Virus record (IMG/VR): IMGVR_UViG_3300028833_000058
Source of the DNA: a virus
Lineage: Duplodnaviria > Caudoviricetes
Length of the DNA stretch: 64,000 nucleotides
Reading direction: 5' to 3' (one strand)
The notes beneath the pieces are model-generated. The model was given only the letters and a program-made list of their open reading frames with translations. It was not told where the DNA came from and did no database searches. Made by a program: the position numbers and the translations under genes. Position 1 is the first letter of the stretch; the number at the start of each line of letters is the position of its first letter. Positions 6,757-25,168 of the stretch are shown here, piece by piece.

Positions 6757-9063
6757 ATGACAAAAGTAATCACAAACGCACAAGGTAAAGCATACGTTAC
6801 TTCAAACGGAAAAGCAATAGCTACATCTGGTGGTGGCGGTGGCGAATGGGACGGCTGGATTGAAACAGATGAATATGGTATAATGCCAGATATTAAATTA
6901 AGAACATCTTCTGCGTTAACAACAGTTGATACAGGAAACATGAATGAACGTTATAGATATGTTCCAATTTCTATAGCCAATCTGTCAAGTATCAGAAGTG
7001 TTACATCCAGAGGATTATGGGAAACATTTTCTGATAACTATCGTTTAAGAACTGTCAACATAAGTAATTTAACTTCAATAACAGGTTATGAAGCTCTAAG
7101 AGGAACATTCAGAAGTTGCTCTAATTTATCATCTATAGATGTATCTCATATTGCAACAGCTACAGGGTTAAGATGTTTACATTACACGTTTGGTGACGAT
7201 TGTGGTGTTACTTCATTAAATTTTAGTTCTTTATCAAATTGTGCAGGTGATAGTGTATTCGCTGAGATGTGTAGATATAACACAAGAATGGCTAACATAT
7301 CTTTTCCAGCTCTTACAACAAATTCTTTTGGTAATTACACAAGCCAATTTGATAACATGTTATATGGTGTAACGGGATGTACTGTACATTTTCCAGTTGA
7401 CATAAAGCCGTTAACAATAAATTGGAATAGTTTTGCAAATGGGTTTGGTGGAGTAAATACACATATAATGTATGACATCGGTGGCGGTATAGTTGATTTT
7501 ACTACTAACCCAAACAACGTTGTTCATCTATACGCATTTTATGAAGATTACACTAATGGTCAAAGTTATCAAAACTTTGTAAAAGTAGGTTCTGTTAATG
7601 TAAACAGAACTACAGGTCATTGTAGTGGTTTCAATACTGATAATTATCTTCAACTGCCTGATACTTATAGTTCTGAATCCGAAACAATAGAAACAAAGAT
7701 ATGTTTTACGACAAGTAATAATACTGGAGATACTCAATCTTTGTGGTATGGTAATAGAGACGATAATTCTTCTAGTGTTAACATAATAAGTGGTGAAATA
7801 TATTTTTGTCATAAACAAGAAGGTGGTGGTCCAGAATATAAGGGAACTGGTCTTTATGTATCAACTAATACAAAGTATTATCTAAAATTGGTAGAAACAT
7901 CTAATACTGTTACACCTTATCTTTCGACAGATGATACAAATTATACACAAGGTAATGATTTTTATCGTGAGTATCCATTTGGTATAAATATAGGTCAAGG
8001 TAGTAATAACGATGACCCATACACTTATTTCACTGGTTCATATGAATTATCTGATTGTTATATAAAAATTGGTTCAACTGTTGTTTGGTCACCTCTTGGT
8101 AATGATACATCAAATCATCTTTCTATCTATGCTCCAGCTGACCAAAATCTTACTTATGTAGCTCATTATGAAACAGCTAATGTTATTTATTATGGTACGG
8201 TTACTGGTATAGTTGAAGGTGAAACAACATATGTTAATGTTCCATTGCCAACTCAAAACGATAGCACTTTCCAAATAAATATAACAAATGACCCAGGTAT
8301 CCAAGAAATGACTTTGGACCTTGGTGAGGGTGCTGTAATAACATTAGGGTTAACTTCTGGTTCTTCACAAGTTGTAGGGTTAGAAAACGGTATTGGAAAA
8401 ACAATTCATTATACGATACCAGCTACATCAACGACAAGAAAGAAAATAGATTCTTTCACTATTCAAAGCGGTACGAATACAATTGATGTTACTTTGGAAC
8501 CAGGATTACAAGAAAATTTCACAATTCTAGGTAGTCCAATTGTAACTGATGAGTATGTTGCTTCAAGATTTGATTCAAATAACCATTTATTGGCAACACT
8601 TTCTAACATACCTTCTGATGGATTTGATTTAATCATGCATTGGAATTTAACCAATAACGACTATTGTCCAGCGTTTGGTTCCATATCAAATGGAGCCTGG
8701 TGGGGTTCATTCCCAAATGGCGTAGGTATGTTTACTGGTGGTTACGACTGTAGTGACTGGAACACGAGAAATGGTAAGGGCTGGTATCTATATAGACAAA
8801 CAAATTCAGAGTTTTTAATATACTATTTGCAAGACGATTATGATACTTACACACTAAGTACTTTACCAAATGTATCTGATTGGACTTTCATTGCATCAGG
8901 AAGTGATACAGGTATATTATCAAATGGTGATTATCGTATAGGTATGAATCCAGACCTTGGATATGATTATCAATATTTCCGTGGTTACATTTATCTTGAA
9001 GATATGGTAATTAGAGATACATCTAATGGTACAATATACTGGAGAGCAGTAGGGACATTTTAA
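6757..9063 (+). CDS. LRR plus two lectin-like modules, putative receptor-binding protein
   Basis: LRRs in the N-terminal third, then two SxFxxxNxL...FxGxxxLxDxxI...W modules; shared N-terminal motif; paralogue of 22859-25168. Confidence 0.7.
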   Translation: MTKVITNAQGKAYVTSNGKAIATSGGGGGEWDGWIETDEYGIMPDIKLRTSSALTTVDTGNMNERYRYVPISIANLSSIRSVTSRGLWETFSDNYRLRTVNISNLTSITGYEALRGTFRSCSNLSSIDVSHIATATGLRCLHYTFGDDCGVTSLNFSSLSNCAGDSVFAEMCRYNTRMANISFPALTTNSFGNYTSQFDNMLYGVTGCTVHFPVDIKPLTINWNSFANGFGGVNTHIMYDIGGGIVDFTTNPNNVVHLYAFYEDYTNGQSYQNFVKVGSVNVNRTTGHCSGFNTDNYLQLPDTYSSESETIETKICFTTSNNTGDTQSLWYGNRDDNSSSVNIISGEIYFCHKQEGGGPEYKGTGLYVSTNTKYYLKLVETSNTVTPYLSTDDTNYTQGNDFYREYPFGINIGQGSNNDDPYTYFTGSYELSDCYIKIGSTVVWSPLGNDTSNHLSIYAPADQNLTYVAHYETANVIYYGTVTGIVEGETTYVNVPLPTQNDSTFQINITNDPGIQEMTLDLGEGAVITLGLTSGSSQVVGLENGIGKTIHYTIPATSTTRKKIDSFTIQSGTNTIDVTLEPGLQENFTILGSPIVTDEYVASRFDSNNHLLATLSNIPSDGFDLIMHWNLTNNDYCPAFGSISNGAWWGSFPNGVGMFTGGYDCSDWNTRNGKGWYLYRQTNSEFLIYYLQDDYDTYTLSTLPNVSDWTFIASGSDTGILSNGDYRIGMNPDLGYDYQYFRGYIYLEDMVIRDTSNGTIYWRAVGTF

Positions 9064-13659: not shown

Positions 13660-14370
13660 ATGTTATTAGATATCATAAAAGCGATTTTAAGCCTTTTCAG
13701 TAAGCAAGAAGAACATAAACCACAAGTTGTTGCTGAAAAACCAAAATTGCTTACCTACGAGCAAATTTTGGCCATTAACGATAATAAAAATCCAGATATG
13801 TGTAAATATTACATCGATGCTTTAAATAAAGTACTTCCAGAGTATAAAATTGATACAAAATTAAGACTTTCACATTTTTTAGCTCAGATTCTTCATGAAA
13901 GTGGTAACTTTAGGTATAAGTCAGAGAATTTAAACTACTCTGCCACTGCTTTGCGTTCTGTCTTTCCAAAATATTTTAAGACAAACGCTATTGCAAATGA
14001 ATATGCAAGAAAACCAGAGAAGATTGGTAACAGGGTTTATGCCAATCGTATGGGAAACGGTAATGAAACTAGTGGAGATGGGTTCAAATATCGTGGAAGA
14101 GGTCTAATTCAGCTCACAGGTAAGTCAAATTATAGGGCCTGTGGAGAAGATTTAGGTATAGATTTATTAAAATTACCAGATTTGATTATATCAGACCCAG
14201 AAATTTGTGTAAAAACAGCCTGTTGGTTTTGGAATAGGAATAATTTGAATAGTTTAGCTGACCAAGACGATATTAAAACCATAACAAAACGTATAAATGG
14301 TGGTTTTAATGGTCTAGAAGATAGACAAAGGTTGTTGGCACGAGCTAAACAAGTTTTATTTACTTCCTAA
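13660..14370 (+). CDS. Glycoside hydrolase family 19 endolysin
   Basis: HFLAQILHESG, ENLNYS, YANRMGNG, GDGFKYRGRGLIQLTGKSNY and TKRINGGFNGLEDR motifs. Confidence 0.95.
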   Translation: MLLDIIKAILSLFSKQEEHKPQVVAEKPKLLTYEQILAINDNKNPDMCKYYIDALNKVLPEYKIDTKLRLSHFLAQILHESGNFRYKSENLNYSATALRSVFPKYFKTNAIANEYARKPEKIGNRVYANRMGNGNETSGDGFKYRGRGLIQLTGKSNYRACGEDLGIDLLKLPDLIISDPEICVKTACWFWNRNNLNSLADQDDIKTITKRINGGFNGLEDRQRLLARAKQVLFTS

Positions 14371-15381
14371 CCAGTTATAAAACATTTTTAATGCACAATT
14401 TTTAGATTTTGACTTTATATGCATCTTACTAGCCATACAAGGTAATCTACAAAATGGATAATATTGACAATTTGAACATTTTAAGTTGTTTATAGCTATT
14501 TCAAATTGTCTTTTTGTGCAATTGTCGTTATCATAACATTCTGTTAAACTCATTCCGTATTCATTTAACATACTTAATGTACCAGACCTTAATAAACACG
14601 AGAATACAAGACGATTATTGATAAATGAGCAACTGTTTTTACATATACAATATCTTCCATTCGGATTATTGTAACTTTCAACTATGTGTTTAACTTCTTT
14701 TATGTTTTCAAATTTGTTTTCATAACAAAATTTATAAAATTCAAATAGGTCTTCTTCTGAAGGAGCATATTTTTCCCAATTTAAGTTATAAATGTAATAT
14801 TCTGGGTATATTTCAAACTTTCTTAAACGTTCTAATTGATTTCCTCTAATATATTCGTGTATACAATCTTTTGTTAAGGTTATTGATATCACTCTTGGAT
14901 TAAAAATATCAATGTTTTTCCACCAAATTTCTTCTGTGTTACCATGAAATCTAGATATTGGGTCGTAAGATGTCGCTATATAACAATCTTTTTCTAATAA
15001 GTCATGTACTCTAGTTACTTTATTGAACACTAAATTTGTTGAAAAGCAAAATTCACATTTATAATTATTGCTGTTACACCAGTCTCTTAAAATGGTTACC
15101 ATTTGTTTATAGCAGGTGAAATATTCATCACCTAAAGAATCCATAAACAACTCCCCACCCCAAAATCTAAAGACAAGATTTTTAATCTCTTTTCTCTTTT
15201 GTTTGATTGTGTCTAATTCATGTATCAAAACGAATGTAGAATCGATAATTTCTTCACACGTTTTCAAATCAGTATGTTTTTCAAAACAGAACTTACAGTG
15301 TAAATTACATCTATCAAAGAGAATTACACATATTTCTAAAGTGTCGTTGTGTTTATAAAAATTATCAAATAGATTATTCAT
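14356..15381 (-). CDS. Radical SAM enzyme with SPASM-like C-terminus (rSAM-6)
   Basis: CNLHCKFC cluster motif, WGGE, STNL; C-terminal CSNCQYYPFCRLPC. Confidence 0.92.
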   Translation of the reverse strand: MNNLFDNFYKHNDTLEICVILFDRCNLHCKFCFEKHTDLKTCEEIIDSTFVLIHELDTIKQKRKEIKNLVFRFWGGELFMDSLGDEYFTCYKQMVTILRDWCNSNNYKCEFCFSTNLVFNKVTRVHDLLEKDCYIATSYDPISRFHGNTEEIWWKNIDIFNPRVISITLTKDCIHEYIRGNQLERLRKFEIYPEYYIYNLNWEKYAPSEEDLFEFYKFCYENKFENIKEVKHIVESYNNPNGRYCICKNSCSFINNRLVFSCLLRSGTLSMLNEYGMSLTECYDNDNCTKRQFEIAINNLKCSNCQYYPFCRLPCMASKMHIKSKSKNCALKMFYNWLGSK

Positions 15382-16537
15382 CGTTTACTATCTCAAACAG
15401 CATTTTATTAATACATTCTTTTGGTTTCCAAATGAACTGATGATTTTGATAACACCCACGTAAATTTCTTTCTGAACACCACGGTTTATATTTACATAAG
15501 TTACATTTATATCTCTTATTGAAAAATGTTTCAACATGCTCATGATGTTTTAGACAGGTAAATTCACCATTCAATTTGTTTTTTATTATGTTTTCTTTTT
15601 TAATGTCATCGTGTTCTGGCCAAAAGATGTAAGGAATTAGTTCACACGGTGATTCTTCTCTGCCAAACATCGGTATAAATTCAACTGTTTCACAATACGA
15701 TTTGAAATCATCTTTGTTTATTTTAATATCAATATTGTGTGACATGAAGACATTTAACTCAATTCCATGCCTATTCTTAATTTCATTATAGAAGTTACGA
15801 TAATCGTCAAAGGTAGGCACTTCTGACATACTATTAGAATTATAAGGTTGATATTCGTTAAAAACAAGTGACAATCGTTTGTTTTTATCCATTTCTAATA
15901 ATTTATCAAAGAGAATGACACTATTGTTATTTTTGTCTTCTATGTATTTGTTCATAGAAGATTTAGTCAAAATAGTCTCTATTAACAAATCATCTTCTTT
16001 TACCAATACCTTTTCTAAATTGTTTTGCCAAATTTTTAACGATAAATCATTTTTAAATCTTCCGTGTACATCATAAGAAGTTGCTATGTTGACTAACTTG
16101 TTTTTTTGTGATATGTAATCAAATAAGTTAAATAATCTATCTAATCTTTCTTTTTCTAATATTAAGTTTGAAAACAACGTATTGTGGAGTTTTACTGGCT
16201 TATTAGTGGTTATTTCATAGAGTGAATCAAACAATTTGTAAAAATAATCAAAATATTCTTTCGGCAACACTCCTATTTCACCACCGATAAAATAATGCTT
16301 TAACAATGTTCCGTTAGGTAATCTGTCTATATTTTCATTTAGCCATTGTATTTCATACTCTCCGATTTTTTTAAACTCTTCTAACGACATTAGTTTGTTA
16401 TCGTGTATTGATTTTAAACAACAAAAATCACAATTGTTATTACACTGAGCAAAAGTAAAAGCATAAGGGAGTAATCCTAAAACTTTAGTCTTTTGTACCA
16501 TCTCTATTAAATCGTTAGTACGTTTATCACTTAACAT
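15374..16537 (-). CDS. Radical SAM enzyme with SPASM-like C-terminus (rSAM-5)
   Basis: CNNNCDFC, IGGE, FSNL; C-terminal CNLCKYKPWC...GC. Confidence 0.9.
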   Translation of the reverse strand: MLSDKRTNDLIEMVQKTKVLGLLPYAFTFAQCNNNCDFCCLKSIHDNKLMSLEEFKKIGEYEIQWLNENIDRLPNGTLLKHYFIGGEIGVLPKEYFDYFYKLFDSLYEITTNKPVKLHNTLFSNLILEKERLDRLFNLFDYISQKNKLVNIATSYDVHGRFKNDLSLKIWQNNLEKVLVKEDDLLIETILTKSSMNKYIEDKNNNSVILFDKLLEMDKNKRLSLVFNEYQPYNSNSMSEVPTFDDYRNFYNEIKNRHGIELNVFMSHNIDIKINKDDFKSYCETVEFIPMFGREESPCELIPYIFWPEHDDIKKENIIKNKLNGEFTCLKHHEHVETFFNKRYKCNLCKYKPWCSERNLRGCYQNHQFIWKPKECINKMLFEIVNDE

Positions 16538-17523
16538 TGTAAATTTTCCTTTATTTTGTCAATTAACATTTTTAACCCTGGACACCCTGTTTTATCGAAA
16601 CTTAACTGACAACATTCGCCTCTACATATGTTGTAATAGGAACAAGTTAAACATCTCTCGTTCAATTTTCTTTCTTGTGATATCAATTTCTTATGTAATG
16701 ATTCATTGTACCCATTGTTGTCAACAATGTGAATATTTGATATATTAGGGCAAGTTGCTATAGTACCATCAGTATTAACTGTTATGACATTCTCCATACA
16801 TCTTCTTTCTCTGCAACCAATTGGGTCATTTCCTTTTATAATGTTTTCTAGTTCTTCAAAAAGTTGTATTTTGATGTCATGGTGTTGTAAATTGTAAATA
16901 TATAGTTCTGTTAACCATTTATCTATATCTACGTTATCTGGTTTTATTTTTACAACAGCAGCTCTACCAGTTTCTGTTATTCTTTCAAAATTTATAATTT
17001 TTATTCCTAATTCTTTGAAATAGTTCATTAATTTACTTGGTTTATGTGACAAAGTAAATTTATTCAATGTAACAATTACTTCAACATCGAATCCTTTTTG
17101 TAACAAAGATTTTACATTATTTTCCCAAATGTTACGTTGATTAACTGTTGTGAACCTATAGTCATCAACATCCCAACTTGTTTTTAGAAATTTTTTGTCA
17201 AAAAGTGAAAAAAGTTCTATTAGTTTATCAGTGAGTTTGTATGTTAAGTTTGTTGTAGCACTCCATTTTATAGTTGGGTAACTCTTAATCAATTCGATAT
17301 AATTTTGTATTGTATTGTCTTCTGCTTGAAAAAAAGGTTCTCCACCATGGAATACACACTCTATTTGTTTAAATTTGTTTACATGTGAGTCTAGGATGTT
17401 TCTGATTACATTTACATCAAGTCTTTTTTTATCAGAAAATATACCAGAGTTCATATAGCATCCTTTGCAATTTAAATTACATTGGTTTGTCATACATAGA
17501 TAGATTTTCTTATACTCATTCAT
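16531..17523 (-). CDS. Radical SAM/SPASM enzyme (rSAM-4)
   Basis: CNLNCKGC, FHGGEP, TTNL; SPASM-like CRERRC...DGTIATCP...CLTCSYYNICRGECC. Start placed at 17523 (GGTGA RBS) rather than 17547. Confidence 0.95.
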   Translation of the reverse strand: MNEYKKIYLCMTNQCNLNCKGCYMNSGIFSDKKRLDVNVIRNILDSHVNKFKQIECVFHGGEPFFQAEDNTIQNYIELIKSYPTIKWSATTNLTYKLTDKLIELFSLFDKKFLKTSWDVDDYRFTTVNQRNIWENNVKSLLQKGFDVEVIVTLNKFTLSHKPSKLMNYFKELGIKIINFERITETGRAAVVKIKPDNVDIDKWLTELYIYNLQHHDIKIQLFEELENIIKGNDPIGCRERRCMENVITVNTDGTIATCPNISNIHIVDNNGYNESLHKKLISQERKLNERCLTCSYYNICRGECCQLSFDKTGCPGLKMLIDKIKENLQC

Positions 17524-17527
17524 GTTA

Positions 17528-18472
17528 TCACCATCTTTCGTTTTCAATATCTTCAGCTACTTTTAAAAGGTTTTTACAGCCATCACATTTTATTTTAGTT
17601 AAGTGTTCTGTCCAACAATTTCCATAATATTTACAATTTCCACATCTCTTTATATACTCCATACGTTCTTTTTTAGCGTCAGCTATATAACTTTCTACGT
17701 CATCATACCACTTAAAATACTCTAAATTATCGTTAGTGTAATAAACTGCACCAAACTTTCCATCTGGTGAAATTCTTATACACTGGTCATTCGTAGCTAT
17801 AGGATATGTTCGATTTAAACAAGATTTTAAACCGTTTTCTAAACACAATTTGTAGTCAAAATCCTTTTCGTGAGACGTGTAATAAGTTAAAATATTTATA
17901 AGAAAGTTTTCATATTGGTCTTGTGTGATTTTATATACATCGCCAGTGTTTATACTCGGATAGTATTTTACGAAAGACACCCATTGTATATTCAAACCGT
18001 TATATCCATCTAAAGCATCTTTTGGGGTTTTTCTTATGAGAGAAGGACTAACTATACTCAAAACTGTTAAATTTTCTAAATTTACACCTTTCTTCAGGAT
18101 AGACTTTATATAATCATAATCTGGTCTTTCTTCGTTTAAAGATGTTGAAAAGAAAGTATTCTTGAATATATGTAACTTTGAGATGTCATAGAAGTTCGTA
18201 GTTAAATAATTCTTACATTTGTATTGAATTAATATATCGTTTAACTCTTTTAAGTATGTATTCGGTAAGAGTGTTATCTCTCCACCATACAGATTAAATT
18301 TTTCAATTTCAAAATATTGTGAAATTTGTTTAAGTCTTTGTTTTAATGTATTTAAGTCCAATATTGATTCACCATGGTGATTGTTTAAATAACAAAACTC
18401 ACAATTGTTATTACAAAGGTACGTTGGAAAAATTGAAACGATTATTTTATTTTTCATTCCTGACCCTTTCAT
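17528..18472 (-). CDS. Radical SAM enzyme (rSAM-3)
   Basis: PTYLCNNNCEFC, YGGE, TTNF; C-terminal CGNCKYYGNC...CDGC. The true start may be 18457. Confidence 0.92.
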   Translation of the reverse strand: MKGSGMKNKIIVSIFPTYLCNNNCEFCYLNNHHGESILDLNTLKQRLKQISQYFEIEKFNLYGGEITLLPNTYLKELNDILIQYKCKNYLTTNFYDISKLHIFKNTFFSTSLNEERPDYDYIKSILKKGVNLENLTVLSIVSPSLIRKTPKDALDGYNGLNIQWVSFVKYYPSINTGDVYKITQDQYENFLINILTYYTSHEKDFDYKLCLENGLKSCLNRTYPIATNDQCIRISPDGKFGAVYYTNDNLEYFKWYDDVESYIADAKKERMEYIKRCGNCKYYGNCWTEHLTKIKCDGCKNLLKVAEDIENERW

Positions 18473-19283
18473 AAAATTTTGGAAAGAAAGAACATCTTGT
18501 ATGTAATTTACAGGGAATACAATTTTTATTATACATACATGTAAGACATCTTTTTAAAACATGCGGCTTGTAGTTTTCTGCAAATACACATTTTTCTTGT
18601 ATCGTTCCGTTTGGTAAAATTGTTTTTGTATTGCAATTAAAATTCCAATTTAATATCTGTTCTTTTATTAAATTTTTTATCATCAAATTTTGAATTGTCC
18701 ATTCTTCATCTAATTTACATAACCAATCGTCTACTGTGTTTTGAAAATCGTCATTTAAGTCATTGTCAATGAGACATTCGAAAAGTATACTGTCAATGTT
18801 TTCAAAACTTTTAATGATTTCAATGAGATGTTCTGGATTCATTTTAACAACATCTTTGTCTAACGTTATCAATAGCAATGGTGATTTTTTTAAAAGTTTT
18901 AAGTTATTTAGCCAGATTTTAAACAATTCATTTGACGAAAATCTATTTGGATTCCAACTTGTTGCTACACTCAAGTCATGTTTGTTTATTTCGTCTATAA
19001 TTTGTTTATCTGTAAAGATAAGATTTGTTGTAATAGAGGTTATTACATCTGTATCTAAGATTTCTATAAAAAGTTTCTTATTAAGAGTAGGTTCCCCACC
19101 ATGAAGAATAAAATTTGCTTCTGGATATTTATGTTTTTGGGACAACATTGTTTTGAAAAAAACTTCTTTGTTAAAACTATACGGTTTATTTTTCACTGTA
19201 CAGTGCGAACAGTTTAGATTACATTTCCAACTAGGTACGATGTAAAATGTTAATTCAGATGAGTCCATATTTTGATAAATCAT
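18447..19283 (-). CDS. Radical SAM enzyme (rSAM-2)
   Basis: PSWKCNLNCSHC, HGGEP, TTNL; C-terminal CLTCMYNKNCIPC. Confidence 0.92.
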   Translation of the reverse strand: MIYQNMDSSELTFYIVPSWKCNLNCSHCTVKNKPYSFNKEVFFKTMLSQKHKYPEANFILHGGEPTLNKKLFIEILDTDVITSITTNLIFTDKQIIDEINKHDLSVATSWNPNRFSSNELFKIWLNNLKLLKKSPLLLITLDKDVVKMNPEHLIEIIKSFENIDSILFECLIDNDLNDDFQNTVDDWLCKLDEEWTIQNLMIKNLIKEQILNWNFNCNTKTILPNGTIQEKCVFAENYKPHVLKRCLTCMYNKNCIPCKLHTRCSFFPKFYERVRNEK

Positions 19284-20205
19284 TGTAGTTTTCTTTCATC
19301 CATTTACATTGCTCATTCTTATATTGTTTAGAATAAAATACGTTTAGTGAGCAAGAATTACACAAATGGAACATTTTACATGTTAAACATTTTTCAAAAA
19401 GAACATCTTTTTGTATATTTATTTCATCTTTTGAACTTATAATATCTTCACAATGGTGTTCTATTAATTCTCCAGAGTTATTTACATAAACAACTTTATT
19501 GTATAAGCAATGTTTATACGACTTCGGATATGGACATTTTCCGTTATAAAATGCGTCTAAGCTTTCTAATTGGTCACCATATCCATTTTTTATAATATCT
19601 AAATATAGTTTGATTAACTTATATCTAGGATAGAAAGATTTACTTAACCCAAGTGGCATTTGTTGATTTAATTTAAATGTAGTACCTAGTTTTTTTGCCA
19701 ATTCACCTGCTTTTAGTACTTCGGTTTCATTGTTTTCGTTGACAATGTAAATAAACATTAGTTTTTCATTGTACATTTCATAAAATTTGTTAAAAATTTT
19801 TACAAATTCGTCTTCTGTGAACACTGAATTTTCTCTTCTGTCTTCACCATATTGAAAACTAGTGACTACCCCAACATGAGGGTTAGTAAAAAGATATTCA
19901 AATTTTTCTGGGTCTTTATACCATAGCGTTAAATTAGACGTTAATGACAAATTGTAATCAGTTCCATTCTGTTCTAAACAATTTATCAAGTCTAAAAAAT
20001 ACGTCTTTGGATTAACCAATGGTTCACCACCAGTTATAATTACATCAGATGGTTTATATTCTTTTAAAAACTGTTTTAATTTTTCAGGAACGTATTCGTG
20101 TAAAGGTATATTTAAAAGTTTAGCACTACAAAATGTACAATTAAAGTTACAAACACTAGTTGGTTTGATAATAAGTGTTTTTTTACCAAATTCTTTTTGA
20201 TTCAT
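19255..20205 (-). CDS. Radical SAM enzyme (rSAM-1)
   Basis: IKPTSVCNFNCTFC, TGGEP, TSNL; C-terminal CLTCKMFHLCNSC. Confidence 0.93.
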   Translation of the reverse strand: MNQKEFGKKTLIIKPTSVCNFNCTFCSAKLLNIPLHEYVPEKLKQFLKEYKPSDVIITGGEPLVNPKTYFLDLINCLEQNGTDYNLSLTSNLTLWYKDPEKFEYLFTNPHVGVVTSFQYGEDRRENSVFTEDEFVKIFNKFYEMYNEKLMFIYIVNENNETEVLKAGELAKKLGTTFKLNQQMPLGLSKSFYPRYKLIKLYLDIIKNGYGDQLESLDAFYNGKCPYPKSYKHCLYNKVVYVNNSGELIEHHCEDIISSKDEINIQKDVLFEKCLTCKMFHLCNSCSLNVFYSKQYKNEQCKWMKENYNDLSKYGLI

Positions 20206-20216
20206 GCCAGTAACCT

Positions 20217-20888
20217 TTATACTAATCCAAAAATTCTCACAGAAGGTAAAGATAACATAGCCTTATAAAATCCGAATTCTTTGGATATATTCTTTATAAT
20301 GTATTCGTATAAAACATGCTCATAGTCATTTGTGTAATATAGCCTAATCGCATCACATTCGATTGGATATTTTATTAGTATGTGTTTAATCGTTTCATAA
20401 AAAACAGGTTTTTCCTTTACAATCTTCCCCTTATAGGAATCGTATTCTATTAATTTATTATCTTTATTTTTTTCTAACAAAAATGTTACTTCATCTAAAG
20501 ATATTAAAAATTGTATTATGTCTTTTATTAATTCTTGATTACGATTTCTAAAAATCTTTATTTCATCTTGTGATAGTATTGATTCTCTAAAGATGATTTC
20601 ATTTGATACAAGATTCAATATACATTGATTAAATTGGTCTATACCCTTATCTAACATCAAATTTGCTTTTAAATATGTTAATAACCATAACTCTTTTGTT
20701 TCGTAGTCACAATTTTCAAAATCAAAAGAACAATTTAACTCTAAGTTTCTTATGTAGATGATTGCTGATAAAATCTGGTTATCCACATCTTCAAATTTTA
20801 TGTCATTGGGATTGATTACATACATGTTAGAAGAGTAATCTGTATCTTCAATGTATTCTTCATTCAGTGGTAATCCAGTGTGTTGCAT
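20217..20888 (-). CDS. Hypothetical accessory protein of the radical SAM operon
   Basis: 223-aa ORF with GAAAGGA RBS between the candidate substrate gene and the first rSAM gene; no family recognised. Confidence 0.7.
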   Translation of the reverse strand: MQHTGLPLNEEYIEDTDYSSNMYVINPNDIKFEDVDNQILSAIIYIRNLELNCSFDFENCDYETKELWLLTYLKANLMLDKGIDQFNQCILNLVSNEIIFRESILSQDEIKIFRNRNQELIKDIIQFLISLDEVTFLLEKNKDNKLIEYDSYKGKIVKEKPVFYETIKHILIKYPIECDAIRLYYTNDYEHVLYEYIIKNISKEFGFYKAMLSLPSVRIFGLV

Positions 20889-20900
20889 GTTTTTCCTTTC

Positions 20901-21710
20901 TTATCTTCTGCTTCTATGGTTACTGTGGCAATTACTATGACAGTTAGAATGACACCAATATTTAACAAAAGTTACACAATTACTACCGTTTGGAGTTGAA
21001 GAACTACCATTCCACATCCATGAAGCATTGTTTACATCATCACAGTCTCTTTTAAAGTTGTCTAACTGTTGTTCTACATTTGCTATCGCTTTTATCAATT
21101 TGTTAATAGACATTGATGATATCTTCGTTGTGTTTAACACATACGTTGTATTATTGTTCCAATTTACAGAGCCTAACGGGTCTGATGAATATCTAGTAAC
21201 ATCTGTGTCTTTATTGTTAACTTTTGGTGGTAACTGTTCTGCGGTGCTAGTATATTCGTTTACAGATTGTTCGTTTACACGTGTGATATCAAAAGATTTT
21301 TTAAAATACGCCCATTTTACTTGCTCAATTGGTTTATTTAAATCAGATGGTAAAACTTGTTCTCCAGTTCCAGAAACGCTTTTTATATAAAGTTTTTTAC
21401 ATCTACCAAGTTCTACAAATACTTTTTTTATAAGTTCGTACGTAGTGTTAGCTTCAGGTATTTTGTTAGTATTGATAGTTGTGTCATTGTTTATAACATT
21501 GGCTATATCGGACAACAGTTCATTTCTTGAACATAAATATTTTTTATCAATGGCATCTGGAACAGAAGTAGTTGAATCCCAATAGTTAGTTTTAGGAAGT
21601 ATGTCATTGCATAAACTGTATAATCTGTCTTTAAAAGATGGTACAATTATGTCGTCTTTAGAAGTTATAACAGTGTTACCAGAAAGCTTTTTAGTAGTTA
21701 TTTGTACCAT
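20901..21710 (-). CDS. Candidate radical SAM substrate/precursor protein with C-terminal (CHSN)3-HRSRR tail
   Basis: First gene of the operon, GAGGA RBS; ends YWCHSNCHSNCHSNHRSRR. Confidence 0.75.
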   Translation of the reverse strand: MVQITTKKLSGNTVITSKDDIIVPSFKDRLYSLCNDILPKTNYWDSTTSVPDAIDKKYLCSRNELLSDIANVINNDTTINTNKIPEANTTYELIKKVFVELGRCKKLYIKSVSGTGEQVLPSDLNKPIEQVKWAYFKKSFDITRVNEQSVNEYTSTAEQLPPKVNNKDTDVTRYSSDPLGSVNWNNNTTYVLNTTKISSMSINKLIKAIANVEQQLDNFKRDCDDVNNASWMWNGSSSTPNGSNCVTFVKYWCHSNCHSNCHSNHRSRR

Positions 21711-21742
21711 TTTATCCTCATTGTTTGTATTAATCTGTTATA

Positions 21743-21802
21743 TAGAACTTAACTGAATAACTAGTTTGATTAGAGTATAACTCAAAGTTATGAAATGTAA
21801 AG
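21743..21802 (-). promoter_or_regulatory. Tandem promoter-like elements of the rSAM operon
   Basis: On the - strand: TTTACA (21801-21796)-N16-TATACT (21779-21774), then AGTTCTA (21749-21743), 33 nt before the start. Confidence 0.55.
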
Positions 21803-21880
21803 TTAAAAAAACACAAAATTGTCTTTAATATTTTTAAAAATTTTATATTCTAATATATAGGAACATTAGAGGAGATTTGA

Positions 21881-22858: not shown

Positions 22859-25168
22859 TTAAAAGGATGGCTCCCAATACGTTGTGGTACCGTCAATACT
22901 TCTGATACAAGTATCATTCAAGAGTATACACATATCATAACCAGGATTACTCCAGTTTGAACCAATCGTCATTGTTCCTGTTCCAGATGTGATTGGGAAT
23001 GTACCACCGTACATATTTATATCAAAAGAGTTGAGCGTCATCCATGCGCTAGAAGGAATATTGTCTTTTGTCCATTCGTTGTTATAATCTTGCGCATATA
23101 ATACTTCAACCATTGAACCGCTTTGAGTATATTTGAAGAACACATACATATCCATTCCGTCAAATGTTACACCACTTGCTAATTCTCCAAATATTGGAAC
23201 GTTTGCACCAAACATTTGACTATATGGGTCATTTACATTCCAATAACATAACGAGTTACCTGATATTTCAAAAGCACTCGCTTGTCCTATTGCCCACGAG
23301 CTTGAATCATAACTTAGTTTAACCTTTGTTATAAACTCAAACTCATCTGTTGGTAGAGTATAATCAGATGTAGCATAGTTGCTATAGTCTGTAGAAGATA
23401 ATATACCAGTTGTTGTATCTAATGTAGGAGTTCCTACCAAAGTAATATTAGAGGTTGGCAACGGGTCTAACGTAATCGATTCAGTTTGATTAGAACCTGT
23501 TAAGGTGATTGTTCCAGTTGTAGCTGCTGTTGTTGAAGTTCTTGCCACTGAATAGTCAATGGTTTTACCTGCACCATTTGCGATATTGATTGTATAAGTA
23601 CCACTAGATTTTGTAACAGGTATTTCTATATTACCAACTGTGAACTTTATAGAATCCACAGGGTCATTTGTAATTGAAACTGTTAAAGTTACATAAGATT
23701 GTGGTTCAGAGATACTGACATTTCTCGTTTCTCCTTCTGTGAGGTTATCAACTGTTTGATAATCAGCGATGTTACTACTTGGGAAATATGTTTGATATGG
23801 GAAATCACCTACACCAAAACTTGAGTATGTATTTATACCAGGTACTTGTGGATTCCAATATACATCTGTGCCAGTTTTTATATAACAATCTGCAAGATGA
23901 ATTGTTCCTGAGAATTGACCTGCAGCATTGTCATATCCAATCATATCACCCCAACCAAAATCTGTACGAAGTGTTAAGCTGTTAGAACCTTGTGTGTATG
24001 TTATTCCATCTGTTGACAGATATCCGTCAATAGTCATATTTGTTTCATCTATAACAAATTTAAACCAATATTTAGTATTTGGTGATAAACTGTTTAATCC
24101 AAAATCTAGAAAATTGTAACCATATTCATATTCCATGATTCCTATTGAAGTACCATCAAGTATGACACTGTAATTCATTGGACCATTTGCTCCATAGAAA
24201 AGTCCTTTCCATCCAGTTAAATCTGATGGAGTTGTAAAACAAATAACTGTTTCTATAGGAACAGATGAAGAAGGTTTTTGTACATCATATAAATAGTTAT
24301 TTGAATTAAAGTTTGATACATCACCAGTATAAACATCTAAAGTAGGATTACCTTGAATACTAAAGTTTGAATACTGTCCTTTGTTACTTTTTACAAAATC
24401 TTTATAAGATAAACAAGTAACTATATTTGGGTTCATACTAAAGTTAATTGTGGCAGCACCAATGTCATATAGGATAGTAGTATTAGTTCCACTAAACCCG
24501 TTTTTAACATCATCCCAGTTTTGTAATATACTTTCTAGTGTATATGGGAAGTGAACACTACATCCTGTAACACCTCTTAACATACCGTTAAATTGATTTG
24601 TATATGTGTTTCCGAAACTATTGGTTGTTAAAGCTGGAAAAGATAAAGATTGTAAAGATGTACAATCAGCGAATGCATATTGAAGAGCATTGTCTGAAGT
24701 AATAGATGATAAAAGTGGCAAAGAAACAGAAGTGAGTGATGAACAACCCTCAAAAATATCATAAAAACAGCTTGAACCAGATAAACTTGTTAAACTTGGA
24801 AAAGACGCTGATGTTAAATTTGAACAACCCATAAAAGTTTGATAACAAGCTTTTTCGTTTGATACACTAGTTAAGTCTGGGAAAGAAACTGTGGAAATAG
24901 TGCTGTTAGGAGCATGTTCATACCAAACACCACCAAATTGATTATACAATACACGACTTCCAATATCCCGAACACCTGTGAATACTAAATTTGTAGTAAC
25001 TCCAGATGGGTTTTGTAATACACCATTAGAATCTACATTACCAAGCAGACCGTCAAGAGTGGCACCATATTTAGTAGAAGTACCACCGCCACCTTCTTGC
25101 ATAAGAATGGCTTTACCATCGTCTAAAATTACTTCACCTGATGTATTAACTAAAACTTTTGTTGTCAT
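22859..25168 (-). CDS. LRR plus lectin-like modules, putative receptor-binding protein
   Basis: FMGCSNLTSASFPSL-type repeats; shared N-terminal motif; segments homologous to both 5892-6746 and 6757-9063. Confidence 0.75.
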   Translation of the reverse strand: MTTKVLVNTSGEVILDDGKAILMQEGGGGTSTKYGATLDGLLGNVDSNGVLQNPSGVTTNLVFTGVRDIGSRVLYNQFGGVWYEHAPNSTISTVSFPDLTSVSNEKACYQTFMGCSNLTSASFPSLTSLSGSSCFYDIFEGCSSLTSVSLPLLSSITSDNALQYAFADCTSLQSLSFPALTTNSFGNTYTNQFNGMLRGVTGCSVHFPYTLESILQNWDDVKNGFSGTNTTILYDIGAATINFSMNPNIVTCLSYKDFVKSNKGQYSNFSIQGNPTLDVYTGDVSNFNSNNYLYDVQKPSSSVPIETVICFTTPSDLTGWKGLFYGANGPMNYSVILDGTSIGIMEYEYGYNFLDFGLNSLSPNTKYWFKFVIDETNMTIDGYLSTDGITYTQGSNSLTLRTDFGWGDMIGYDNAAGQFSGTIHLADCYIKTGTDVYWNPQVPGINTYSSFGVGDFPYQTYFPSSNIADYQTVDNLTEGETRNVSISEPQSYVTLTVSITNDPVDSIKFTVGNIEIPVTKSSGTYTINIANGAGKTIDYSVARTSTTAATTGTITLTGSNQTESITLDPLPTSNITLVGTPTLDTTTGILSSTDYSNYATSDYTLPTDEFEFITKVKLSYDSSSWAIGQASAFEISGNSLCYWNVNDPYSQMFGANVPIFGELASGVTFDGMDMYVFFKYTQSGSMVEVLYAQDYNNEWTKDNIPSSAWMTLNSFDINMYGGTFPITSGTGTMTIGSNWSNPGYDMCILLNDTCIRSIDGTTTYWEPSF

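Follow-up and report, generated by a model that had tools for sequence, protein, structure and literature searches.

A candidate protein-maturation module pairing Cys-His-tailed proteins with radical SAM enzyme arrays in phages and predatory bacteria

We analysed a 64,000-nucleotide stretch of viral DNA (Duplodnaviria; Caudoviricetes; IMG/VR record IMGVR_UViG_3300028833_000058; hereafter the window) that contains an operon for a protein with a Cys-His-repeat tail and six radical S-adenosylmethionine (rSAM) enzymes. The open reading frames (ORFs) of the window include a run of eight minus-strand genes (21710-14356) in the order A, B and r1-r6: protein A, the presumed substrate, with the tail at its C terminus (20901-21710(-), 269 amino acids), protein B (20217-20888(-), 223 amino acids) and the radical SAM/SPASM-type enzymes r1 (19255-20205(-), 316 amino acids), r2 (18447-19283(-), 278 amino acids), r3 (17528-18472(-), 314 amino acids), r4 (16531-17547(-), 338 amino acids), r5 (15374-16537(-), 387 amino acids) and r6 (14356-15381(-), 341 amino acids). 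Adjacent genes overlap by 7-29 nucleotides or are otherwise separated by spacers of 11-12 nucleotides, and the G+C content of the operon (27-29%) is below that of its surroundings. These ORFs agree with an earlier reading of the same DNA (the first-pass annotation), which had described A, B and six enzymes as one tightly packed minus-strand unit with neither a protease nor a transporter; none is present among the operon ORFs, nor are companion enzymes of small-molecule pathways. An identical B sequence was found on a 246,429-bp contig, so that the window is evidently jumbo-phage DNA.

The C terminus of A (YWCHSNCHSNCHSNHRSRR / WCHSNCHSNCHSNHRSRR) reads YW-(CHSN)x3-HRSRR across residues 251-269 (coding segment 20904-20960(-)), and the motif CHxxCH occurs only once in all frames of the window, in this segment. 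A has 15 full-length relatives, all of which keep the tail, and the tail persists in homologues down to approximately 33% identity. Within this class Y251, W252, C253, H254, N256, C257, R266, R268 and R269 are invariant, and members have between 2 and 4 CHxx repeats. Judged by this conservation, the tail is not a chance feature. A itself has no match in Pfam, NCBIfam or PHROGs, a search with its profile found no related solved structure, and the AlphaFold model of its body is poor (pLDDT, the predicted local distance difference test score, of 39 with a 6-sequence alignment). Searches of cultured phage records with the DNA or with protein A, tblastn searches with the canonical and small Cys-His (CH) proteins described below, and a peptide-pattern scan of viral contigs for relatives of A all returned nothing; look-ups of A and B in the ESM Atlas gave only leads below useful thresholds.

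Each of the six enzymes carries both hallmarks of the radical SAM superfamily, CxxxCxxC (at residues 19-32) and GGE, together with 7-8 C-terminal cysteines that include CxxCx5C, as first annotated; all of these motifs are kept in orthologues from three other contigs. The Pfam Radical_SAM model scores above threshold for r1, r2, r3 and r4 and more weakly for r5 and r6, and five of the six match phrog_1802. A putative SPASM region for auxiliary 4Fe-4S clusters is suggested by the 7-8 invariant C-terminal cysteines of each paralogue (with CxxCx5C) and by the r4 profile, which aligns to the anaerobic sulfatase-maturating enzyme (anSME) through this region; the SPASM model TIGR04085 scored 24.9 on an r1 orthologue, below its cut-off of 27. 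With the rSAM motif beginning at residues 19-32, there is no room for an N-terminal leader-binding domain or RiPP recognition element (RRE; RiPP, a peptide made on the ribosome and then modified post-translationally). Among solved structures, the r4 profile matched anSME over its full length (4K36-4K39, E value 2e-15), followed by ChlB (1.5e-12) and CteB (2.7e-11), and the best NCBIfam matches of r4 and its orthologue in Bdellovibrionota were anSME, PapB, DynA, AmcB, YhhB and related peptide maturases, all far below family cut-offs. In sequence, the enzymes are most similar to SPASM enzymes that modify peptides and proteins, and not to the nucleotide or cofactor families, a grouping that the first-pass annotation had named as speaking against its reading.

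The array is old. Four contigs carry the same cassette in the same gene order, with one-to-one orthologues for each enzyme (50-73% identity, except for r5, the fastest-evolving paralogue, at approximately 27%, which is duplicated in one relative), and the paralogues r1-r6 are mutually only 20-30% identical. These identities indicate that the duplications are ancient and that each copy has been kept. A recent local expansion of the array is ruled out, given that r1, r3, r4 and r6 have orthologues in distant phages and bacteria; r3 is kept in many canonical loci (defined below), and r2 was seen only in loci of the window type. One close relative of the cassette lies on a contig named WOLF17 from a European Nucleotide Archive metagenome assembly. 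A further window-type relative, with the order r1, r2, three r6-like genes, r3 and a 226-amino-acid CH protein, was found on a contig (249 kb, GC 28%) of a Bacilli metagenome-assembled genome, which hints at either a low-GC Bacillota host or a mis-binned jumbo phage.

The association of tail and enzymes extends far beyond these cassettes. A DNA pattern encoding CHxxCHxxCHxxRxRR-stop, for which approximately no chance matches are expected (estimated at ~1e-13 per position), matched at least 120 viral contigs and 47 genome contigs. In the first 80 viral loci analysed, rSAM genes stood beside the tail protein in 78, and 97 ORFs of 120-364 amino acids ended in the tail; 39 of the 47 genome matches carried the module. 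The other eight genome matches, all high in GC, had no module beside them and were set aside as chance matches. The usual gene order is cupin, r4, CH protein, B-like protein, r6, r1 and r3, often followed by further unclassified rSAM genes, with 4-7 enzymes per module; the first-pass annotation had considered six maturases unusual, a number that turns out to be typical of the family. For the reverse test, a profile of r4 identified at least 364 relatives in viral contigs, and we examined the best 80 loci. Immediately downstream of r4 and on the same strand, 58 encoded the strict tail, nine a variant ending in ...YCHSNCHGSCHGS[I/L] and two another variant; five loci ended right after r4, and six informative loci had no tail. 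A CH tail therefore directly follows r4 in 69 of the 75 informative loci. The co-occurrence of CH-repeat proteins with multi-rSAM arrays, proposed in the first-pass annotation as a check, is borne out in both directions and in the genomes, and arrays commonly lacking a CHxx neighbour, which would have argued the other way, are not what we found. Spanning hundreds of loci, this co-occurrence supports treating the tail protein together with its rSAM array as one genuine functional unit.

Cultured jumbo phages carry the same module, namely Atu_ph07, the RSL2/RSF1 group, Phosso and pPa_SNUABM_DT01. Gp170 of Atu_ph07 ends in CHSSCHASCHNSRSRR (C-terminal peptide ending ...CHSSCHASCHNSR) and ORF068 of RSL2 ends in CHSSCHTSCHGSRGRR; both genes lie directly after an r4 orthologue and before a gene for a B-like protein, with more rSAM genes downstream and a cupin gene upstream. 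The arrangement is the same in Phosso and in pPa_SNUABM_DT01, the latter with at least six annotated rSAM enzymes. The window proteins have clear orthologues in these phages: r4 corresponds to Atu_ph07 gp171 and RSL2 ORF067, r6 to gp168 and ORF072, r1 to gp165, and B to gp169 and ORF070. In addition, r4 is approximately 30% identical to single annotated rSAM enzymes in jumbo phages. We define the module by at least two C-[HWY]-x-x repeats at a C terminus (usually followed by RxRR), encoded beside a B-like protein and rSAM enzymes of the r4, r6 or r1 type; in PHROGs terms it is an uncurated combination of phrog_35144, phrog_20767 and phrog_1802, to which the window belongs by its tail, B and its orthologues of gp171, gp168 and gp165. 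The cupin that heads the canonical module (RSL2 ORF066 and Atu_ph07 gp172) matches Cupin_2 and JmjC-type hydroxylase models, which suggests an oxygen-dependent hydroxylation step. No cupin is encoded in the window, and we infer that phages of anaerobic gut hosts drop this oxygen-dependent enzyme.

The tail is borne by at least three types of body. Once the tails are stripped, the proteins fall into classes of approximately 190 amino acids (canonical, including the proteins of Bdellovibrionota), 128 amino acids (often in tandem pairs) and 258 amino acids (that of the window), and hhalign profile comparison detected no homology between the three. What A shares with the proteins of Atu_ph07, RSL2, Phosso and pPa_SNUABM_DT01 is limited to the last ~17-21 residues. 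Such a tail, constant on unrelated bodies and always accompanied by the same enzymes, is as expected of a site of enzyme recognition and modification. Across 127 unique viral tails, which were picked by a pattern that itself fixes Cys, His and Arg, each repeat has mainly Ser (116, 99 and 113 of 127) or Asn at position 4, and RGRR is the usual ending. The tail variant of the nine r4-seeded loci (...YCHSNCHGSCHGS[I/L] / ...EEFYCHSNCHGSCHGS[I/L]) lacks RxRR, indicating that the basic end is not essential and that the CHxx repeats are the constant feature. A second class of CH-tailed proteins, of approximately 127 amino acids, is encoded by paired tandem genes on viral contigs that span 5-150 kb (20-60 kb in most cases). 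A different group of 3-6 rSAM genes, most of them unclassified, accompanies these pairs, and a cupin or r4 is usually absent.

The module is not confined to phages. Approximately 25 of the 47 genome matches fall in Bdellovibrionota, including contigs of 1.29, 2.45 and 2.84 Mb, and no obvious prophage genes were found among the ten flanking proteins scanned; in these predatory bacteria the module is chromosomal. In one genome it lies among housekeeping genes and adjoins a gene for a 413-amino-acid protein with a Peptidase_S74 (endosialidase-chaperone) domain typical of tail fibres, and in another it adjoins a gene for a 2355-amino-acid Big_2/RCC1-repeat protein. Baseplate or fibre genes also adjoin the module in the window and in the cultured phages. 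The fibre- and adhesin-like neighbours in Bdellovibrionota link the module to machinery for attachment to bacterial surfaces, in phages and predators alike.

Protein B, together with the rSAM paralogues r1, r3, r4 and r6, is conserved across the family. Direct scans of Pfam, NCBIfam and PHROGs gave no family match for B, and profile comparison aligned it with the canonical B-like family of gp169 and ORF070 (hhalign 97.6%, E value 4e-12). The first-pass annotation had listed B as an unknown protein of 223 amino acids; it is indeed unmatched, but its standing as a universally conserved, non-enzymatic, phrog_20767-like partner had been overlooked. Its model is a confident alpha/beta structure (pLDDT 88.7; predicted template modelling score (pTM) 0.86; 75-sequence alignment) that has no match in the PDB by Foldseek at E <= 0.001, none in the ESM Atlas above a template modelling (TM) score of 0.39, and, by VIA-align wide, a best Z of 4.0 to a partial barrel of SuiB, within the range of noise. 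The weak top rows for B (Z <= 4) consist of partial barrels of rSAM enzymes and of enolase-type barrels, and could reflect a degenerate barrel or just noise. Complex prediction for B with residues 190-269 of A gave a median score of 0.59 (runs of 0.66, 0.59 and 0.00; best control, 0.01; partner pLDDT at least 32, run agreement at least 0%). When calibrated, 58 of 80 solved complexes reached the mark, as did 2 of 110 mismatched pairs, and passes at or below 0.60 are wrong more often than right; the result was graded as weak support and is not used as evidence here. From its position and conservation, B is a probable chaperone or presenter of A.

One flank of the operon in the window encodes a baseplate-wedge protein, a protein with a tail-fibre-like C terminus and large proteins. 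Two flanking proteins of 769 and 768 amino acids (22859-25168(-) and 6757-9063(+), respectively) are full-length paralogues on opposite strands (32% identity, E value 1e-79) and are probably a set of alternative receptor-binding proteins. Several neighbours have modules in common with this pair, and the 769-amino-acid copy has a weak match to BspA-type leucine-rich repeats. On the other side, a gene for a glycoside hydrolase family 19 (GH19)-type endolysin (13660-14370(+)) runs towards the operon and shares 15 nucleotides with the 3' end of r6. The operon had first been described as lying between two blocks of tail-fibre genes, which is largely correct: baseplate-wedge, tail-fibre-like and paralogous large proteins do flank it. 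However, its 3' end is abutted by the endolysin, and family matches are lacking for most of the large proteins on its flanks. Lysis genes also adjoin relatives of the cassette (a GH19 gene in one and holin genes in two others). The divergent intergenic region upstream of A (21711-21880) contains a sigma70-like site (TTTACA-16-TATACT, 21801-21774(-)) and the heptamer AGTTCTA (21743-21749(-)). We set aside a reading of these sites as late promoters: in the sequence searched, neither kind exceeds chance frequency (AGTTCTA, 18 observed and 14.4 expected; promoter-like sites, 50 observed and 56 expected).

A tail-bearing protein has been detected in virions. The published virion proteome of Atu_ph07 includes gp170 (31.89 kDa, 8 unique peptides, 35% coverage; Supplementary Table S5, PMC6102473), in agreement with the mass that we computed from its sequence, and does not list gp165, gp168, gp169, gp171 or gp172 (PMC6102473). 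Gp170 was detected in gel bands 1-9 with a peak in band 1, where proteins of 87-127 kDa run, and other Atu_ph07 proteins of ~30 kDa peak in band 8 (PMC6102473). Its presence in the virion list and its peak in band 1 indicate that the tail protein is a component of the particle that runs as a high-mass species. A virion location, raised as a possibility in the first-pass annotation, thus holds directly for a tail-bearing counterpart and is transferred to A through the tail and the gene context; A is probably part of the virion, as opposed to a peptide made for export.

Taking these lines together, we consider it fairly likely that the operon is a protein-maturation module in which radical SAM enzymes modify or crosslink the C-terminal tail of a virion protein. 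In the mechanism that we propose, A would be a late, virion-associated protein, probably located in the baseplate/fibre adsorption apparatus, and its tail of (Cys-His-x-Ser/Asn) repeats, ending in RxRR in most members, would be the substrate of the set of SPASM-type enzymes. With a 5'-deoxyadenosyl radical derived from SAM, each of them would abstract hydrogen from a residue of the tail. Possible products are carbon-carbon bonds (joining His and the third residue at its C-beta, as triceptides do), carbon-sulfur bonds (Cys thioethers) or oxidized Cys (as with anSME), and the C terminus would end up as a rigid knot, polycyclic or cross-linked, that might bind metal as well. B would be a non-catalytic partner, probably holding or presenting A, and the enzymes would stay outside the particle. 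In phages of aerobic hosts a JmjC/cupin-type oxygenase would join the set; the version in the window, which lacks the cupin, has the additional rSAM enzymes r2 and r5.

Several points weigh against this reading. A modified residue has been observed by nobody. Every NCBIfam match falls well short of its family cut-off, so that the enzymes cannot be given a specific chemistry, and 4-7 enzymes for a tail of ~16 residues exceed the usual need of iterative RiPP systems, so that some may act elsewhere. No homology to gp170 was detected for the body of A, so that its virion location is carried over by tail and gene context only. As described, the Atu_ph07 loading buffer is free of reducing agent; disulfide-linked oligomers, or an oligomer or trimer stable in sodium dodecyl sulfate, would therefore explain the migration of gp170 equally well. 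Finally, the Cys and His repeats could simply bind metal.

This last point leads to an alternative in which the tail is an unmodified motif for metal or Fe-S binding (for example, a Zn or Fe site in a trimeric fibre, or a cluster donor) and the rSAM enzymes act on other fibre proteins or on a small molecule. Cys and His at regular intervals are typical ligands for metals, fibres of the T4 type bind iron through His-rich repeats, and the number of enzymes is beyond the apparent need of a 16-residue tail. Metal ligation would, however, not require the Ser or Asn that is mostly kept at position 4 of the repeat. The r4 gene lies immediately beside that of the tail protein in 69 of 75 loci, the tail moves among unrelated bodies along with the enzymes, and a cluster donor sits poorly with a tail protein that is in virions when the enzymes are not. 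We regard this alternative as unlikely. It is also quite improbable that the system is a classical RiPP pathway, in which the body of A would be an oversized leader and the modified tail would be cleaved off as a bioactive peptide directed at competitors or host defences. The variable N-terminal part, invariant C-terminal core and repeat number of 2-4 do resemble the architecture of RiPP precursors, but neither the window operon nor the canonical modules examined encode a protease or exporter, the bodies are 120-364 amino acids long and conserved within classes, and the body of gp170 was itself recovered from virions at 35% coverage. That the array acts on a cofactor, sugar, nucleotide or DNA base, with A nearby by coincidence, is very improbable: phages do employ rSAM enzymes in nucleotide and DNA chemistry, rSAM genes of the Campylobacter phage CP220 adjoin amidinotransferase and glycosyltransferase genes, and the window enzymes have weak NCBIfam matches to MoaA, QueE and NirJ, but the linkage to the CH tail is kept across very distant phages and bacteria, the best full-length matches are protein and peptide maturases, and the operon has no companion small-molecule enzymes.

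Maturation of a virion-protein tail remains the reading that we prefer, in agreement with the outline, though not every detail, of the first-pass annotation, and we tentatively extend it to a widespread, unrecognized class of modification, in which 4-7 rSAM enzymes (with a JmjC-like oxygenase in phages of aerobic hosts) could build a polycyclic or cross-linking Cys/His knot on the C termini of phage structural proteins and, in Bdellovibrionota, on proteins encoded beside fibre or adhesin genes. The maturation of ribosomal products by rSAM/SPASM enzymes is already known; the module itself is widespread and uncurated. In PHROGs, phrog_35144 (the CH protein) and phrog_20767 (the B-like protein) carry the label 'unknown function', neither protein has a Pfam or NCBIfam model, and full-text literature searches yielded no description of the module. 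Its rSAM and cupin genes appear in genome papers among accessory genes of unknown role, and a broad survey of jumbo-phage functions makes no mention of radical SAM enzymes. Most of what is known of radical SAM maturases concerns small secreted peptides, together with a few enzymes. If our interpretation is correct, phages and predatory bacteria apply multi-enzyme radical chemistry to structural proteins, a new layer of virion biochemistry, and RiPP-type chemistry serves to harden or arm an apparatus for attack on cell surfaces instead of making a secreted peptide. It would also assign a role to the rSAM genes that accompany the tail protein, listed in jumbo-phage papers as 'radical SAM / Fe-S oxidoreductase / cupin' of unknown function, and would set a divergent group of enzymes, probably with distinct chemistries, to work on one short motif. 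The candidate substrate is well defined—the 16-residue tryptic C-terminal peptide of A is YWCHSNCHSNCHSNHR—and phages of Agrobacterium, Ralstonia/Burkholderia, Pseudomonas and Sinorhizobium that are in culture and amenable to genetics carry the module, making the proposal directly testable.

Multi-rSAM loci of CP220-type Campylobacter phages, cited in the first-pass annotation as a parallel, are a different system: the CP220 region that we examined has no CH tail, and its rSAM genes lie among those for amidinotransferases and glycosyltransferases. RRE-dependent RiPP pathways also differ, given the substrates of 120-364 amino acids, the lack of room for an N-terminal RRE in the enzymes and a B model without a significant fold match. 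The best full-length structural relative of r4, anSME, is similar in size, has no RRE domain, acts on a Cys or Ser of a whole protein and contains two auxiliary clusters. In contrast to anSME systems, no sulfatase is present, TIGR03942 scores only 60-65 bits (cut-off, 349), and the C-H-x-S/N tail lacks the sulfatase motif C/S-x-P/A-x-R, with no Pro or Ala at +2.

The ranthipeptide and sactipeptide maturases PapB and CteB and the enzyme QhpD are likewise SPASM enzymes, to which the module enzymes show weak matches. All of them form thioethers from Cys to nearby residues in repeated Cys-Xn-acceptor motifs, and QhpD crosslinks QhpC, a protein subunit rather than an exported peptide. Their usual acceptors are Asp, Glu and Thr, whereas those of the module would be Ser or Asn; the module enzymes also score far below the cut-offs, lack an RRE and are many more in number. 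The His-Xaa-Ser system (HxsA, the rSAM enzymes HxsB and HxsC, and HxsD; TIGR03976-03979) resembles the module in having a repeated His-x-Ser substrate and more than one rSAM enzyme, the canonical tail being (C-H-x-S)x3. It differs in that HxsB scores 20 bits (cut-off, 370) and HxsC 14-31 bits (cut-off, 268), no NCBIfam model recognizes either A or the canonical CH proteins, the window tail has H-x-N, and the Cys is invariant.

Triceptide (three-residue cyclophane) synthases act on HAA, HNR and HTK motifs, in which they join the C2 of His to the residue in third place at its C-beta (PMC11499958). The H-x-S and H-x-N of the module tails fit this pattern. The module departs from these systems in its substrate, a protein of 120-364 amino acids (virion-located in one case) rather than a short leader-core peptide, in the invariant Cys of each repeat, in having 4-7 different rSAM enzymes rather than one and in lacking an N-terminal leader-binding domain; with YhhB, XyeB, GrrM, AmcB and FxsB scores of 22-49 bits against cut-offs of 310-450, its enzymes belong to no characterized cyclophane synthase family. 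What the module has in common with HaaB, HtkB, YhhB, ChlB and XyeB is the combination of rSAM/SPASM enzymes, which in triceptide systems crosslink the aromatic residue, with repeated aromatic-X-X motifs—H-S-N three times in the window tail and H-x-S three times in the canonical tail—and an r4 profile that matches ChlB (E value 1.5e-12) and, weakly, YhhB.

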